This document shows positions 1 through 16,659 of a stretch of 62,243 bases of DNA, one piece after another; position 1 is the first letter of the stretch; every line of letters begins with the position of its first letter. The stretch lies in IMG/VR virus record IMGVR_UViG_3300043408_000040, positions 1 to 62,243 of that record, one strand, 5' to 3'. The stretch comes from a virus. Lineage: Duplodnaviria > Caudoviricetes. Position numbers and translations under genes: made by a program. The notes beneath the pieces were generated by a model that was not told where the DNA came from, did no database searches, and saw only the letters and a list, made by a program, of their open reading frames with translations.

Positions 1-240
1 GCTGAGTAGACTTGCTTGGCCACATGTGTGATGGCTTGCGATGGGACTGCTGCCTTCACCAGACGGGCTGTTCCGGCTGCGGTGGTGACGAGATAGATAC
101 GAGTTGTTGTTGTCATGGTGTTACTCCTTAAAATTTCCAGGTGATTGCTTTGACAGCCCACATCTGTGCGGTCTGTGTGTCGGTGATAGCGAGGGACAGC
201 ATTCGCTTCACCTCGTTGTCGGTTGCCTCTGCTCGGCGTT
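1..240. repeat. Terminal direct repeat (copy 1), circular-assembly overlap
   Basis: Identical to 62004-62243 except T113 vs C62116. Confidence 0.97.
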
Positions 241-2811: not shown

Positions 2812-3111
2812 ATGAGAAGAGCTGCACGGCGAGATCACGGGGAGCAAGACATCATCAAGGCCATGAGGGCCTGCGGTGCGTTCGTCAAGGTCATCAATGA
2901 CGAGGGCACGTTCGATCTCCTTGTTGGCTGCACAGGTTTTTCAGGTCGGTTTTACACCTTGCTCCTTGAAATCAAAGACGGCACCAAGCCGCCATCAGCC
3001 AGGCGACTCACGGACGCAGAGCAGAAGTTCCACGACGAGTGGCCCGGCGACAACTTGCACATCGTCAACAGTGTTCAAGAGGCATTGGACCTGCTCAAGA
3101 CTTGCGTATAG
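2812..3111 (+). CDS. VRR-NUC / Holliday-junction resolvase-like nuclease
   Basis: FDLLVG...LLEIKDG...RLTDAEQKFHDEW pattern. Confidence 0.7.
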   Translation: MRRAARRDHGEQDIIKAMRACGAFVKVINDEGTFDLLVGCTGFSGRFYTLLLEIKDGTKPPSARRLTDAEQKFHDEWPGDNLHIVNSVQEALDLLKTCV

Positions 3112-3114
3112 AAT
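3085..3114 (+). promoter_or_regulatory. Putative promoter for small RNA
   Basis: TTGGAC-18 nt-TAGAAT. Confidence 0.45.
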
Positions 3115-3120
3115 CGCGTC

Positions 3121-3184
3121 CTGAACATTCATGTGTTCTCCTGTTGGGTAATTTCCCCTCACCTCAGACGTGGGGGGATTTTTT
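3121..3184 (+). ncRNA. Candidate trans-acting antisense sRNA (anti-SD/anti-AUG seed plus intrinsic terminator)
   Basis: 5' hairpin GAACA/TGTTC, seed ATTCATGTGTTCTCCT, terminator TCCCCTCAC/GTGGGGGGA followed by T6. Confidence 0.5.
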
Positions 3185-3191
3185 CAGGGCC

Positions 3192-3307
3192 ACCAACCAT
3201 GCGTCTTTGGGACTTACGTCCGGGCAAAACAAGGATTCATGGTTGATGGTTAAGCGCACTGCTTGCAAGGCGTAGGGCTGGGGATTCTCGGTCGCCATCA
3301 GCCCATG
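3192..3307 (+). ncRNA. Structured RNA element with two mutually exclusive folds
   Basis: 3238-3250 can pair with 3192-3201 or with 3295-3307. Confidence 0.4.
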
Positions 3308-3356
3308 TTGTACATTAGTTCGATTCCATGTATTATTTGATGCAAAGGAGTCAGCA

Positions 3357-3893
3357 ATGTTCACTGAAAAGCAAATTCAAAATTTCCTGTCGAAAACTCA
3401 AGCGCAGGAAAACGGCTGCATACATCACTTGGCCAAGTCAAAAAAACATGGCTACCCGTACGTCCACTTGCGCATTGGGTCTGGTGTTGAAGTAAGAACG
3501 TCAGCCCACAGGGTTGCTTGGATCATCAAGAATGGTCCAATACAAGGCGGTCTATATGTTCTGCACAAATGCGACAACCGGATGTGCTGCAACCCAGATC
3601 ACCTTTTTCTTGGTACGCACCAAGACAACATGGATGACATGAGGAGCAAAGGCCGATCCAAGCTGATCGGCGCAGGAAGAGACTACGAGCTGCTTCAGAG
3701 TTTTGCTCAGTCCGAGTCGGCTCAAGAAAAACGCAGAGAGACATTTGCGCGGATTGGCCATCAGCGTGGCGCGGCAAACTCGCAGCATGGCACGTACTGG
3801 ATCACAAACGGTCTAACCAGCCAAAGGTGGAGGGATTCATTGGGTGAAATTCCGGATGGATTTAAAAGAGGCCGGGTTCAGAAAAGCACTTGA
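3357..3893 (+). CDS. Free-standing HNH homing endonuclease
   Basis: SAHRVAW, VLHKCDNRMCCNPDHLFLGTHQDNMDDM; C-terminal WITNG...GFKRGR tail; AAGGAG RBS. Confidence 0.9.
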   Translation: MFTEKQIQNFLSKTQAQENGCIHHLAKSKKHGYPYVHLRIGSGVEVRTSAHRVAWIIKNGPIQGGLYVLHKCDNRMCCNPDHLFLGTHQDNMDDMRSKGRSKLIGAGRDYELLQSFAQSESAQEKRRETFARIGHQRGAANSQHGTYWITNGLTSQRWRDSLGEIPDGFKRGRVQKST

Positions 3894-3920
3894 CACTAAC
3901 CCTGTAGTGTGTTGTATACT
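3890..3920 (+). promoter_or_regulatory. Putative promoter for downstream ncRNA region
   Basis: TTGACA-19 nt-TATACT (spacer is long). Confidence 0.5.
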
Positions 3921-3926
3921 GGAGCC

Positions 3927-4024
3927 GTTGTCGTTGCACACAACAAGTCAGAAGCCGTTTATGCATGCGTACTGCCCTCATCCTTGAGGGGTGCAACCAG
4001 TTCGCAGTCGTAAACGGCTTTTTT
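3927..4024 (+). ncRNA. Pseudoknotted leader/attenuator ending in a U-tract
   Basis: Loop GTTGCAC (3933-39) complementary to GTGCAAC (3991-97); stem AAGCCGTTTA/TAAACGGCTT followed by Ts. Confidence 0.55.
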
Positions 4025-4034
4025 CATTTGTGCT

Positions 4035-4241
4035 GACTGTTTAAAGATGATGCGGCGTGGACGGACACGCTAGGTGCGGTGCAGAAAAATTCAATGCGGC
4101 GAGGAGTAATTTCCCTGTGGTCGCACTGCGAAGGTACTGACAGGAAATTGGAGTTGGCCCTGGGGACGCCCATCCAACCGGCGGCAGCGGCCAGTGGGCT
4201 GCCAATCTGGAATCAAGCCCAGACATCATCTTTAAACAGTC
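4035..4241 (+). ncRNA. Multibranched RNA closed by a perfect 18-bp stem, with tRNA-like arms
   Basis: GACTGTTTAAAGATGATG / CATCATCTTTAAACAGTC with several internal hairpins. Confidence 0.55.
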
Positions 4242-4249
4242 TCCTCGAC

Positions 4250-4520
4250 TTCCGTACTCCGCACGATAGCAAGCACCTGCATGGGTGGCGCGGAAGGGAA
4301 CACGCGTCTCCGAACGACCAACGGAGGCGTGCCAGACTAACTGTGGTACTGGCGCAGGCATGAGTGATAACGGTGACGGCTACAGCACTCCTCCCGATGA
4401 AGCAGTCGTTTATGACGGGCTACCCAGCGATGGATGCCAGCTAGCCACAGGGCCGACAGATGCGCGGCTGTGGTGGGTACGGTGACTGGATACCTTTATA
4501 CGGGGTCCCCAGTCACCCGG
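4250..4520 (+). ncRNA. Hairpin-dense structured non-coding region
   Basis: At least 6 consecutive stems; no credible ORF with RBS. Confidence 0.45.
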
Positions 4521-4566
4521 CGTAGCAATGGCTGAAACTTTTTTGAGCTGACGGAATTTTGGTTGT

Positions 4567-4590
4567 AAAAAAACCCGCGCTAGGCGGGCT
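4567..4590 (-). terminator. Rho-independent terminator of leftward operon
   Basis: Minus strand AGCCCGC-loop-GCGGGT followed by T-run. Confidence 0.7.
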
Positions 4591-5293
4591 CCGATTTGAT
4601 GGCGTAGTCATGGAAGACAGCACCCCTTGAGGGATCACCCACCTTACAAGGCTTGACCCACACGTTCGAGCCGTTGCGCAGGCGGCGCAGGTGGCCTCTG
4701 CGGTCATGCAAACGGGGTGAGGCATGGTTACCCCCTTTATCCTCCGATCGCGCCTTGACGGGCTCAATGTAGACCGTTGTCCAGTCGTATGTTGGCAGCT
4801 TGCCTTGTTGTATTTTCCTGCGGTTGGTGAAGGTGTCTCGCGCAACAGGACGGTAGCTCTGGGCTCTTTGTGAGATGGACTTGTACCAAGCAGAGACAAA
4901 GCCAAGGATCATCTGGGCCTCCTTCTCCTCGATACTTTCTTTCTCGTCCACTGCGCCATAGCGCACTAGGCCGCCGTCTACCGCGTAGACCAGTATTGGG
5001 CTGGCTATGGGCCGACCACCGGTTGGTGCTCGCCAAACGGACAGAGCAATCCCATCCTCAGGGTCGTCTCCGGCGACGGTCATGAACATTTCCATTGGTC
5101 TTCCGCTGGTAGTCTTGCCCTGAAACACAACCATGCACTTTTCAAACGGCGGTCTGTATTCGAGTAGAGGGTCTGATTCAACGTGGGTTTTGTCTTGGAA
5201 CATCCCGGTTGCATCAAACCACTGAAGCTCAGTTGGATCTATGCCCGCATCTGACATAAACCGCATCGTGGATCGGATCAGCTGCGTTGTCAT
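4580..5293 (-). CDS. Conserved phage hypothetical protein
   Basis: C-terminal HASPRLHDRRGHLRR...VWV...GD motif typical of a phage family; ATGA coupling. Confidence 0.75.
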   Translation of the reverse strand: MTTQLIRSTMRFMSDAGIDPTELQWFDATGMFQDKTHVESDPLLEYRPPFEKCMVVFQGKTTSGRPMEMFMTVAGDDPEDGIALSVWRAPTGGRPIASPILVYAVDGGLVRYGAVDEKESIEEKEAQMILGFVSAWYKSISQRAQSYRPVARDTFTNRRKIQQGKLPTYDWTTVYIEPVKARSEDKGGNHASPRLHDRRGHLRRLRNGSNVWVKPCKVGDPSRGAVFHDYAIKSEPA

Positions 5294-5454
5294 TCCGGAT
5301 CTCTCCAAATATCTGGAGTGGCCCATGCGAACAAGGCCTCCCACATTGATTGGCAATCTCCGATCCGTTCGTAGTAGAACTTGGCAAGCTCCAGCTGGTT
5401 ATCACGCTCTTGGAGCCACCACTCATGGGCTGTGTAGGGGGGATACTTGCGCAT
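5290..5454 (-). CDS. Hypothetical protein (54 aa, not in ORF track)
   Basis: MRKYPPY...WRDPE; translationally coupled on both sides. Confidence 0.6.
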   Translation of the reverse strand: MRKYPPYTAHEWWLQERDNQLELAKFYYERIGDCQSMWEALFAWATPDIWRDPE

Positions 5455-11520: not shown

Positions 11521-11568
11521 TCAATCGCCCAAGCCAGAGGGCATGTGTGCTGGCAGTTGGAGAATCAA

Positions 11569-13047
11569 ATGAGTTTGCAATTACGAGAGTACCAAGCCGG
11601 TTCCCTTGATGGTTTGAGGCAAGGCTTTGCTGCGGGATACAAGTCGCAGATGCTCTACGCCCCAACGGGAGCCGGCAAGACCGAGATGGCCATTGCCCTG
11701 CTGGAGGCCACAAAGAAGAAGGGCAACAAGGCCGCAATGATTCTGGACCGCATCATCTTGTGCGATCAGACGAGTCAACGCCTTGAGAAGTACAAGATTG
11801 ACCATGGTGTGCTTCAGTCGGGCCACTGGCGGTATCGGCCATACGAGAGCATTCAAGTGTGCTCAGCACAGACGCTGGAAAAGCGCGGATCATTCCCCGG
11901 TCTCACGCTGATGATTGTTGATGAGGCGCATGCCATGAGAAGGCAGACCATTGAGTTCATCAAGAACAACCCAGACATCAAAGTCATTGGGCTTTCCGCA
12001 TCCCCATTTACGAAGGGCTTGGCATCAGTGTATGAGAACGTAGTCAGCACCGTCACCACCAAGCAGTTGGTCGATCAGGGTGTGCTGTGCCCTCTGCGCG
12101 TGTTCATTGCCAAAGAGATTGACATGGCTGGCGCCAAGAAGGTTGCCGGCGAATGGAGTCAGGCTGAGACAAGCAAGCGCGGCATGCAGATCACTGGTGA
12201 TGTGGTGGCCGAATGGATCAAAATGACGCACGAGATATTCGGCGCACCCAAGAAGACCATCGTGTTCTGCTCTGGCGTGGAGCATGGCACAGACCTGTCA
12301 AAGAAGTTCGCAGAGCAGGGCTACAACTTCATCAGCATCTCCTACAAGGATGACGATCAGTTCAAACGTGATGTGATCGAAGACTTCAGCAAGCCTGACA
12401 CAGAGATCCATGGCCTGATCGCCACCGATGTTTTGACCAAAGGCTTTGACGTTCCCGATGTGATGATTGGCGTGAGTGCGCGGCCATTCAGCAAGTCGTT
12501 CTCATCTCACGTCCAGCAAATGGGGCGCGTGATGCGCGGCTATTCTGGCAAGCAGTTCGCCGTCTGGCTGGATCACTCTGGCAACTACATCCGATTCCAA
12601 GAGGAGTGGGATGAGGTTTACAACGATGGCGTGACCAAGCTGGAAGACGGCAAGGAAAAAGCGAAGAAGGAAAAGACGGAAGGCGAGAAGGAGGCGGCCA
12701 AATGCCCCAAGTGCGGCCACCTCTGGGCCAGTGGCTCCGACTCTTGCTTGCATTGCGGCTACACCCGTGAAAAGAAATCCATGGTCGAGTCTGTGCCAGG
12801 CCAGATGGAAGAGCTGTCAACGGGCGGCAAGCATTCAATGCAGGACAAGCAGGCGTTCTGGTCTATGTGCCAGTACAAGAAGCTGTACAACGGTTGGACC
12901 GATGCGCGATGCAAGGCAAGCTATCACGGCCTCTATGGCGTGTGGCCTAAAGGATTGCTTGATGTACCAAAGCCGCCGGACATCAAGTTTGAGAAAACAC
13001 AAAAGGCGCAACTCATCAAATATTTAAAAACCAAAGGAAGAAAATGA
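11569..13047 (+). CDS. Superfamily II (DEAH) DNA helicase with Zn ribbon
   Basis: APTGAGKT, DEAH, SASP, KGFDVPD, QQMGRVMR, CPKC/CLHC. Confidence 0.92.
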   Translation: MSLQLREYQAGSLDGLRQGFAAGYKSQMLYAPTGAGKTEMAIALLEATKKKGNKAAMILDRIILCDQTSQRLEKYKIDHGVLQSGHWRYRPYESIQVCSAQTLEKRGSFPGLTLMIVDEAHAMRRQTIEFIKNNPDIKVIGLSASPFTKGLASVYENVVSTVTTKQLVDQGVLCPLRVFIAKEIDMAGAKKVAGEWSQAETSKRGMQITGDVVAEWIKMTHEIFGAPKKTIVFCSGVEHGTDLSKKFAEQGYNFISISYKDDDQFKRDVIEDFSKPDTEIHGLIATDVLTKGFDVPDVMIGVSARPFSKSFSSHVQQMGRVMRGYSGKQFAVWLDHSGNYIRFQEEWDEVYNDGVTKLEDGKEKAKKEKTEGEKEAAKCPKCGHLWASGSDSCLHCGYTREKKSMVESVPGQMEELSTGGKHSMQDKQAFWSMCQYKKLYNGWTDARCKASYHGLYGVWPKGLLDVPKPPDIKFEKTQKAQLIKYLKTKGRK

Positions 13048-15603: not shown

Positions 15604-15854
15604 ACAAAGAAGATGTCATTAGGCTTGCAAAAGAAGCTGACGTTTGGGTTGCGGGGCAAGAGCCGTACCAGGCACAGCTTGAGCGTTTTGCTAGACTGGT
15701 TGCAGCCGCCGAAAGTCAGGCGTGGGTTCGGATGATCAACTCAATCGACCTTGCTGGGCTAAGAGATCATCCAAACATGCAGCGGCTTGTGGCTGAGTTG
15801 TTGAATGGAATCATTGACTGTATGGAGTCAGGGAGCCGCAATGCAGTTCCTTGA
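15600..15854 (+). CDS. Hypothetical protein
   Basis: LERFARLVAAAE module. Confidence 0.6.
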   Translation: MNKEDVIRLAKEADVWVAGQEPYQAQLERFARLVAAAESQAWVRMINSIDLAGLRDHPNMQRLVAELLNGIIDCMESGSRNAVP

Positions 15855-16659
15855 CTTCTGCCGCGCCCACGGCATCCTGATTGACCGCGAGCCACCGATC
15901 GGCGTGTGGCGCAGGTATCCCACGGAAGACAAGCCCACGCATCGCAACGGAGCCGTGAAGTATCTTGGGACCCACGCCTTCTTGCAAAACCACGCCACCA
16001 TGACGGAAATTGAAGTTTGGAAGGCCGATGGCGACACCGTCATAGACCGCGACCGCATCCGGCGCATTGCCCAGCAGGCAGACCGCGACATTCGTGAAAA
16101 GCAGGAGCAGGCTGCACGCAAGGCCGCAGGCATCCTACACAACTGCCAGATCGGCTACCACCCCTACCTCGAAAAGAAAGGATTCAAGGAGGAGCAAGGA
16201 AACATCTGGAAGCATGAAGACGAGCTGCTGTTGGCAATTCCAATGCGCGTGGGCCATCGGCTGGTAGGTTGCCAGATCATCAGCGAGGACGGCACAAAAA
16301 AGTTTCTGTTCGGGCAGCGCACGAGTGAGGCCGCGTTCGTATTCGACAACAAGGGTGTGAACATCCTGTGCGAAGGCTATGCCACGGCTCTCTCAATCAA
16401 GGCTGCGATGAAGGCACTCAAGCGGCGCTACACGCTGCACGTTTGTTTCAGCGCTGGCAACATGAAGAAAGTGGCAGCCACTCTGCCGGGCGGGTTCATC
16501 GTGGCCGACTGTGATGCCAGCAGGACCGGGCAGAACACCGCAGAGCAGATCGGCTGGCCATATTGGATGCCAGACACTGTAGGCATGGATGCCAACGATG
16601 TGCACCAGCGTGACGGGCTGTTCAAGTTCTCGCAGTCCCTCGGCAAAGTGATTCGATAG
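15841..16659 (+). CDS. TOPRIM-domain primase (P4/TraC-like)
   Basis: HPYLEKKG, LCEGYATALS, FSAGNM, IVADCD, MDAND. Confidence 0.88.
   Translation: MQFLDFCRAHGILIDREPPIGVWRRYPTEDKPTHRNGAVKYLGTHAFLQNHATMTEIEVWKADGDTVIDRDRIRRIAQQADRDIREKQEQAARKAAGILHNCQIGYHPYLEKKGFKEEQGNIWKHEDELLLAIPMRVGHRLVGCQIISEDGTKKFLFGQRTSEAAFVFDNKGVNILCEGYATALSIKAAMKALKRRYTLHVCFSAGNMKKVAATLPGGFIVADCDASRTGQNTAEQIGWPYWMPDTVGMDANDVHQRDGLFKFSQSLGKVIR

Follow-up and report, generated by a model that had tools for sequence, protein, structure and literature searches.

The stretch analysed here (the window), a virus record of 62,243 bases with an estimated completeness of 75%, carries on its + strand at positions 3121-4575 an island of non-coding RNA genes, which is neither spacer nor coding sequence. 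The island lies behind a gene for a 99 amino acid protein running rightward from 2812 (2812-3111, + strand) and ends at 4580, where it is met by a convergent gene for a 258 amino acid protein (4580-5356, - strand). It is composed of five elements, A to E, and the only credible + strand gene in the 1.46 kb past the 99 amino acid gene encodes a 178 amino acid HNH_3 endonuclease (3357-3893). Our favoured reading, to which we give a probability of about one half, is that a terminator-gated unit of the island, composed of C, D and E, makes stable RNAs which act in their own right.

The core of the island is one sigma-70-driven unit present once per genome in this group of phages. Its promoter would first yield C, an RNA of about 100 nt. 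A 5' hairpin of C pairs through its loop with the internal loop of a long hairpin, and this long hairpin doubles as an intrinsic terminator. Polymerases halting at this terminator would release C as a compact small RNA, and those reading through it would continue into D, an expansion module shaped like a tRNA, and from there into E, a multi-hairpin RNA of about 300 nt whose near-invariant 5' domain, the handle E1, is followed by an exchangeable body, E2 (of class IV in the window). E1 would engage a conserved host or phage partner. B and A are further conserved RNA structures upstream. The data show the RNAs themselves, how they fold, how they are coupled and where they occur; the read-through, the stability of the products, their action in trans and the partner are what we infer in this scheme.

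The promoter and the parts of C are the following.

3890-3920, + strand: promoter of C, with the -35 hexamer at 3890-3895 and the -10 hexamer at 3915-3920
3926-4024, + strand: element C, a pseudoknotted small RNA (fold z-score -6.47, 0 of 200 shuffles as good; alignment of 36 sequences)
3927-3931/3940-3944, + strand: helix P1 of C
3933-3939/3991-3997, + strand: pseudoknot P2 of C, joining hairpin loop and internal loop
3953-3974/3998-4019, + strand: helix P3 of C, the long terminator stem
3975-3980/3985-3990, + strand: apical hairpin of C
4019-4024, + strand: U-run of C

The promoter of C is of the sigma-70 type. Its spacer in the window is of an unusual 19 nt, and the site was missed by the promoter scan; the counterpart promoters fit a strict TTGNNN-16..18-TANNNT-type pattern in 29 of the 36 C homologues. 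The stop codon of the HNH gene falls within the -35 hexamer. C recurs in dozens of related loci, and in the alignment of its 36 distinct homologues (A1) the fold pairs 94.8% of cells; column shuffles give 76.8%, and sliding the partners gives 32-49%. Of the 31 pairs, 25 change on both sides. The pseudoknot P2 is paired in all 36 sequences; five of its seven pairs covary, with up to four pair types per position. A covariance model of C finds a single copy in the window, at 97.9 bits. No third site for either 7-mer of P2 recurs within 3 kb, and the 20 scattered occurrences in 36 loci compare with an estimated 26 or so expected, so the pairing is taken to be internal to C. A preliminary description of this DNA had noted candidate promoters and terminators on the + strand; for the 3' end of C the terminator scan lists 4006-4019, a predicted G+C-rich hairpin followed by a U-run.

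Predicted folding of the + strand, expressed as z-scores against dinucleotide shuffles, is stronger than expected on both sides of the HNH gene: 3894-4575 has a z of -4.27 with 0 of 20 shuffles as good (- strand, z -2.37), and 3112-3356 a z of -4.03 with 0 of 200 shuffles as good. Element by element, folding is strongest for C and D (z -6.47 and -4.27). Terminator-like sites number 8 against 3.1 +/- 1.8 expected, and include 3154-3178 and 4006-4019.

Element E as a whole spans 4243 to about 4545 and is divided as follows.

4243-4303, + strand: E1, the near-invariant domain at the 5' side of E (core in at least 119 viral contigs; covariation in alignment A2)
4252-4257, + strand: invariant hexamer of E1
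4258-4261/4291-4294, + strand: basal stem of E1
4274-4277/4284-4287, + strand: apical stem of E1
4304-4545, + strand: E2, class-IV body of E (11 distinct homologues)
4306-4312/4322-4328, 4329-4339/4344-4355 and 4357-4366/4386-4395, + strand: helices of E2
4396-4400/4406-4410, 4440-4446/4519-4526 and 4481-4496/4502-4517, + strand: further helices of E2
4539-4544, + strand: U-run of E2

The 18-nt core of E1 was found in at least 119 viral contigs and, among the matches listed, in 106 distinct contexts; the context counts given below (98 and 100) and the 88 E1 sequences of alignment A2 are likewise drawn from among the matches listed. The 5' 18 nt of E1 are fixed by the search pattern and therefore say nothing on conservation. 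In the E1 hairpin six of eight pairs covary in A2, the apical pairs with 3-42 double changes. E1 is almost always preceded by a C-type terminator: a T-run lies within 45 nt on its 5' side in 83 of 98 distinct contexts (median 13), farther away in 13, where mostly D-type inserts intervene, and is missing in 2. A perfect 7-bp pseudoknot candidate is present in 66 of these 98 contexts. The four genomes checked, all of at least 99% completeness, have exactly one copy of E1 each.

Inspection of A2 by eye showed for E1 of class I that the apical loop is complementary to a stretch of 4-5 nt about 8 nt past the hairpin and that both change together between phages, which suggests a pseudoknot. This type of pairing is not shown by the class found in the window, whose loop is self-complementary.

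The body E2 pairs 95.2% of cells in its 11 homologues, against 86.1% in shuffles and 34-45% when slid, and 16 of its 42 pairs change on both sides. In the three alignments G-U pairs exceed A-C mismatches, by 76:13 in C, 30:1 in E1 and 85:3 in E2, which identifies the + strand as the folded one. Covariation in C, E1 and E2, together with open frames which homologues do not keep, bears out the structured non-coding RNA locus proposed in the preliminary description.

That description had also divided the locus into five separable + strand elements, and the division agrees with the comparison of related phages. From the proteins flanking the island, those of 99 and 258 amino acids, 111 related viral loci were retrieved (L-numbers denote the loci compared). 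The slot between the two genes is variable, pieces of the window recur in it in differing combinations, and homology to related phages breaks at the boundaries of A, B, C, D and E, which are independent modules of mosaic homology. Within E, at least four unrelated classes of body follow E1 and interchange behind unchanged flanking genes: the E2 of the window is found in L005 and L062 at 92-94% identity, and behind the same flanks L002, L061 and L054 share a different body and L047 and L050 another.

Element D, between C and E in the window, has the following parts.

4034-4242, + strand: element D, closed by an 18-bp perfect stem (4035-4052/4224-4241)
4054-4059/4066-4071, + strand: 5' hairpin of D, 1 nt inside the closing stem
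4206-4223, + strand: 3' hairpin of D, abutting the 3' strand of the closing stem

None of 200 shuffles folds as well as D (z -4.27). Its 15 distinct relatives lie on the strand of E and, by eye, show compensating changes in the closing stem; they sit between C and E1 or at the tip of a hairpin within class-I bodies. In L002, L051 and L127 D sits between C and E1; in L053/L054 it follows another leader of the C type. Two relatives (L122, L156) retain canonical-looking letters of the tRNA D-stem and T-loop. ARAGORN called none of the D elements of 11 loci a tRNA. We regard D as a putative tRNA-derived expansion module.

The two elements upstream of the HNH gene are simpler.

3121-3186, + strand: element A, with a small hairpin (3123-3138), a terminator hairpin (3154-3178) and a U-run (3179-3184)
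3186-3306, + strand: element B, with hairpins S1 (about 3188-3251), S2 (3254-3273) and S3 (about 3276-3293) and a tail (3294-3303)

A (z -2.62, 4 of 200 shuffles as good) was found by nhmmer behind the 99 amino acid gene in 21 related loci and is a conserved, predicted terminator region at the 3' side of that gene. Antisense targeting by A, as an anti-Shine-Dalgarno regulator, found no support in a shuffle test on the window: its 16-nt core has a single further match at up to 3 mismatches, which 15 of 100 shuffles equal, so that the target matches are no better than chance. B (z -3.04, 0 of 200 shuffles as good) has 7 distinct homologues, in which RNAalifold predicts 29 pairs, 6 of them with compensatory change, a modest covariation. 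Its tail repeats the 5' strand of S1, so that an alternative pairing with the 3' strand of S1 is possible. A tRNA-like cloverleaf was considered for B and rejected, as RNAalifold prefers three plain hairpins.

None of these elements could be assigned to a known RNA family, as had been stated from the sequence at the outset. Rfam 15 gave no family at gathering score in the window, and the search of 2900-4800 with E up to 10 gave seven matches, all far below cut-off, the best with 25.2 bits against 51.4. On 16 related loci tRNAs were the sole Rfam matches, and on L047 and L002, searched with E up to 10, only tRNAs were above cut-off. The best match for A, Betaproteobacteria_toxic_sRNA, reached 18.8 bits against a cut-off of 50.

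That the region codes for small proteins on either strand, or is decaying tRNA or spacer DNA without function, is very improbable. There are open frames of 66-106 codons (4285-4485 and 4079-4363 on the + strand, 4041-4361 on the - strand), a blastp cluster of antisense open reading frames (ORFs) overlaps E in 24 loci, and a 10-nt T-loop-like remnant is seen at 3318-3327. However, these three longest ORFs gave no Pfam match, the open frames of the RNA stretch gave no PHROG match, and among homologues the frames of the three are not preserved, the start codon being lost or the frame shifted in relatives. L337, L335, L338 and L200, for example, lack the start codon of the 41-codon ORF at 4361-4486, whose frame is shifted in L203-type sequences. 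Substitutions in the helices are compensatory and not codon-like, and the antisense cluster over E is explained by conservation of the RNA.

The RNA families are present in many uncultured freshwater phages. A class-I E used as query matched one uncultured phage record, cultured phages being without the unit, and no match to the unit was found in 5,426 E. coli genomes. Contigs of bacterial genomes gave 77 matches to the E1 pattern against an estimated 277 or so expected by chance. An extended pattern kept 4 of the 77; one of these, L238, was unlike E1, and L253 was added by eye, which leaves about four true matches (L250, L253, L275, L291), the rest being consistent with chance. As their sources are metagenome-assembled genomes (MAGs) of Burkholderiales type or of Sulfuritalea, besides one small contig labelled Legionella, hosts of Betaproteobacteria type are suggested, and the hosts of this freshwater phage are probably Betaproteobacteria. 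Our literature search found no description of the unit; some of the motifs may be among the 8,495 candidate structured RNAs reported as predictions from IMG/VR (PMC10690425).

A weak hint of transcription comes from contigs of RNA libraries (4 runs from 4 studies) which match E1 or E2 at 90-99% likeness. Those on E1 cover 4251-4303, with summed depths of up to 143, and those on E2 cover 4305-4491, 4305-4468 and 4305-4578. One contig of 1064 nt begins 67 nt before 3153 and stops 12 nt past 4578, just beyond E2; of a relative it covers A, part of B and E2.

Across phages the unit sits in the early recombination/replication region, with genes for PD-(D/E)XK, ERF, YqaJ, RecT, RecE-like, helicase, primase, RusA and methylase proteins as neighbours. 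In the lineage of the window (L002, L005, L047, L050, L054, L061, L062) it is conserved facing a convergent terminator, and in the window itself the helicase (11545-13047) and primase (15805-16659) genes are 7-12 kb off, past a block of genes on the opposite strand. As this lineage keeps C-D-E without anything downstream to regulate, the products are taken to act as RNAs themselves; the convergent terminator and the distance to helicase and primase favour self-contained RNAs over a purely cis-acting leader.

Several observations weigh against this reading. The first downstream ORF is on the same strand in 71 of 100 E1 contexts, and the commonest first downstream gene, first in 9 loci and nearby in 14, matches PHROGs for replication initiation; with such same-strand, initiator-like neighbours a cis-acting leader or an origin-linked role fits at least as well. 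The 19-nt spacer of the window's promoter is poor, and C ends in a strong terminator, so that the amount of E is uncertain. E alone is thermodynamically unexceptional (z -1.25, 8 of 100 shuffles as good), so that its support is comparative, and the covariation of E2 comes from 11 sequences of about 3-4 lineages with a structure predicted from the same sequences. The partner of E1 is postulated. The RNA-library contigs are assembled sequences in which carry-over of DNA is possible, and strand, ends and abundance could not be judged from them.

Doubtful, though a serious rival of the favoured reading, is a replication-control or primer RNA. The promoter-C-E arrangement would mark or feed an origin, the terminator of C limiting the transcripts that reach E, and folded E would form a persistent hybrid or load a primosome beside the replication genes. 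This would fit the single copy of the unit per genome and the recombination and replication genes among which it lies. It would also fit the matches of the commonest downstream gene to replication initiation and primosomal protein PHROGs (3.5e-13 to 2.2e-8), the failure of tblastn to find a homologue of this initiator-like gene in the window, and the G-rich tract facing a C-rich tract, noted by eye at the end of class-I bodies. However, the window's helicase and primase are distant and behind opposite-strand genes, the initiator-like gene is the first neighbour in just 9 of 100 contexts, and non-homologous E bodies swap while the flanking protein genes stay.

The class-I bodies themselves (L115, L119, L120, L130 and others) have a T-arm-like hairpin about 150-330 nt past E1. 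At their end a long pyrimidine-rich strand pairs with a G-rich one bearing two G-runs, a tract which could favour RNA-DNA hybrids or quadruplexes.

An early-operon leader acting in cis, in which C, E or both would gate or modify the polymerase by attenuation or by put-like processive antitermination, is likewise a serious rival, though in our view unlikely. The unit stands directly behind a strong promoter, has a terminator built into the leader and is followed in most contexts by a same-strand ORF, and a precedent exists in the put RNAs of HK022, which are reported to be structured, placed just past early promoters and acting without protein factors. On the other side, the lineage of the window retains the unit without a same-strand gene downstream, and a second promoter-like site before the genes often intervenes (by reading, uncounted). 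E is placed after and not before the terminator to be overcome, the unit is single-copy where put is found at both early operons, and there is no likeness to put (about 70 nt, two stems) in sequence or size.

The favoured reading, of RNAs acting in their own right, leaves no part to the two proteins which the preliminary description had linked to the locus, RtcB and the HNH nuclease; both are bystanders outside the mechanism. RtcB is encoded, with a PD-(D/E)XK nuclease and a 102 amino acid protein, by the leftward genes at 385-2773. Among 231 sequences searched by tblastn an RtcB gene is present in one, the window, yet 57 loci keep the neighbouring PD-(D/E)XK gene, and on this count linkage to RtcB is rejected. 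The second bystander forms a cassette.

3309-3893, + strand: HNH homing-endonuclease cassette, with a promoter-like site (3309-3336) and the coding sequence of the 178 amino acid protein (3357-3893)

The protein matches Pfam HNH_3 (4.6e-15) and zf-His_Me_endon (1.5e-4), and a 2-kb query against GenBank phages gave matches only inside its gene. Among related loci this HNH is found in the slot only in the window; at its position in relatives, B abuts the promoter of C or tRNA genes are present. True tRNA genes lie between A/B and the promoter of C in 4 of the 28 relatives scanned (L002, L005, L061, L064), while the window has none by ARAGORN or Rfam RF00005. The domain of HNH_3/His-Me finger type, the promoter-like site and the sporadic presence are features of free-standing homing endonucleases, and the gene is, as far as can be judged from these, a selfish insertion where relatives carry tRNA genes, cleavage and homing being predicted.

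The RNAs could also be guides or cofactors of the HNH nuclease, which had been one of the original proposals and is hardly credible now. Adjacency speaks for it, in the window only, but the RNAs are present in well above 100 contigs that lack this HNH, the 178 amino acid HNH_3 protein is typical of free-standing homing endonucleases, L048 bears an unrelated HNH elsewhere in the slot, and the cassette occupies a place which in relatives is filled by tRNA genes or empty. As a general rule the partnership is refuted by this distribution. Of the preliminary description as a whole, the genuine structured RNA locus stands, and the link to RtcB and the partnership with HNH, like antisense targeting by A, are not supported.

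Two further observations concern the slot. In L048 a 115 amino acid HNH protein (4882-5229, + strand; PF01844, 1.4e-10), unrelated to HNH_3, is encoded at the far end, following a structured-looking stretch of about 370 nt that replaces E, and the slot looks like a homing hot spot. In the window 10 nt spelling a tRNA T-loop and stem (GTTCGATTCC, 3318-3327) are found between B and the start of the HNH gene, overlapping its promoter-like site, and may be the remnant of a tRNA gene displaced by the cassette.

Mimicry of tRNA as an anti-defence strategy is quite improbable. B, D and perhaps E would be decoys or sponges for tRNA-directed nucleases or tRNA-binding factors, alongside the tRNA genes in the slot of relatives and possibly with repair by RtcB in this phage. 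Such a role would agree with those tRNA genes, with the D-arm and T-arm letters held by relatives of D, with the mosaic and fast-exchanging modules, and with window neighbours such as RtcB, a protein with an Acb2/Tad1 hairpin domain and the 258 amino acid protein, whose look-alike Atlas cluster is AcrVA2-like (score 0.98, not confirmed by Pfam). However, D and B are without an anticodon arm and a free acceptor end and therefore do not look like targets of anticodon nucleases, none of the other loci searched has RtcB, the AcrVA2-like assignment failed to be confirmed by Pfam, and C and E show tRNA likeness in single hairpins at most.

The RNAs constitute new families in a known kind of phage locus, with no Rfam family for any of them. 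They are abundant in uncultured freshwater phages, single-copy and strongly constrained in structure, and they make a compact addition to the few large phage RNAs, GOLLD and ROOL among them, that have no assigned role. The design of a handle with an exchangeable body, the terminator gate and the tRNA-shaped inserts offer entry points for studying phage devices made of RNA only. Annotation of the region is corrected too, RtcB and HNH becoming bystanders and the HNH cassette marking a homing hot spot inside an RNA-gene island. We would tentatively go one step further, on a possibility well short of even, and consider C-D-E as a previously undescribed modular RNA machine without a dedicated protein. 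In it a pseudoknot-locked terminator would meter transcription into a large RNA with a universal handle (E1), swappable bodies and tRNA-shaped plug-ins, for instance for an RNA-only assembly or for an RNA setting replication initiation. If true, such a machine would work without a dedicated protein in a widespread group of freshwater phages.

The remaining features are those at the border of the island and in the flanking genes.

4543-4588, no strand assigned: end of the island, with a promoter-like remnant (4543-4571) followed by a hairpin (4574-4588)

The hairpin is the predicted terminator of the convergent gene 4580-5356 on the - strand, whose T-run precedes the hairpin on the + strand. 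The sequence at 4543-4571 (TTGAGC-17-TAAAAA) aligns with a promoter-like TTGACT-17-TTAGACT before the downstream gene in L335 and L200, and looks like a decayed second promoter kept where the convergent block replaced the downstream genes.

The 258 amino acid protein, conserved in 45 viral loci, matches neither a Pfam nor a PHROG family. In the Atlas its nearest clusters are annotated as AcrVA2-like (PF26125) on 19-46% of their members, with a TM of 0.70 by query, and the match is a lead for an anti-defence role. The protein was also considered as a replication initiator and rejected, having no likeness to the initiator-like cluster. The 99 amino acid protein, conserved in 66 viral loci and with no Pfam or PHROG match, shows a D...ExK pattern, which we take to be typical of small PD-(D/E)XK/VRR-NUC nucleases. 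Pfam searches with the 71 window proteins identified in addition a GIY-YIG protein with NUMOD3, i.e. a second homing endonuclease, and the Acb2/Tad1 hairpin domain, SPFH and an SU10-type adaptor; the 25 of 30 Pfam families listed include no integrase.

Comparison with known systems begins with put of HK022, reported to be an RNA of about 70 nt with two stem-loops which lies upstream of terminators, exists as putL and putR and acts on the zinc-binding domain of the RNA polymerase beta' subunit. Both put and the unit are structured RNAs directly behind an early phage promoter without a dedicated protein; in distinction to put, C contains its own terminator and E lies behind it, the unit is single-copy and there is no likeness in sequence. 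The CI RNA of P4 and the C4 antisense RNA of P1 and P7 are small RNAs made close to the promoter, and their loop pairings covary from phage to phage; the loops are complementary to separate target sites within one leader or operon. C resembles them in its position and in its covarying loop pairing and differs in having both pairing partners within one RNA of 100 nt, and the Rfam model C4 (RF01695) has no match in the window. D shares with YrlA and tRNA-like RNAs a long closing helix abutted by D-arm-like and T-arm-like hairpins, and differs by the lack of an anticodon arm and by not being called by ARAGORN. The YrlA model (RF02553) has no match in the window or in L047; its one match, which lies across a true tRNA in L002, is partial and scores 17.7 bits (cut-off 69). 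The 25 of 30 Pfam families listed for the window proteins do not include Ro60/TROVE. A has in common with RF02278, the Betaproteobacteria toxic small RNA, a pyrimidine-rich 5' motif followed by a terminator hairpin, in an alignment over the full length of the model, but scores 18.8-21.4 bits against a gathering score of 50 and lies in the 3' region of a gene.

Closer parallels exist for the locus as a whole. The tRNA region of T4 also encodes small stable RNAs of unknown function. Within that phage tRNA gene region, segB is reported as a free-standing homing endonuclease gene (PMC2330249). As in the island, the homing endonuclease is found inside a phage cluster of genes for stable RNAs; the differences are that the endonuclease of the island is of the HNH_3 and that of T4 of the GIY-YIG type, that the window is without tRNA genes, and that the RNAs belong to unrelated families.

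The closest kind is that of GOLLD and ROOL, large ornate RNAs of phages and prophages which are described as lying often close to tRNA islands and as having no known function, GOLLD with one conserved and one variable part and sometimes tRNAs in the linker. Their Rfam models gave no match with E up to 10 in 2900-4800, L047 and L002. E, with about 300 nt, is smaller than GOLLD and ROOL (about 600-800 nt or more), has its conserved part at the 5' end and not at the 3' end and, unlike them, is coupled to an upstream pseudoknotted terminator RNA. The likeness is in architecture and setting: like the island, these RNAs are phage-borne, multi-helical with pseudoknots and placed beside tRNA genes, as is the slot in 4 of 28 relatives, and the conserved and variable parts and linker tRNAs of GOLLD parallel E1, the exchangeable E2 and the tRNA-like D. 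By this analogy the best reading of the unit is one akin in kind to GOLLD and ROOL beside tRNA islands.

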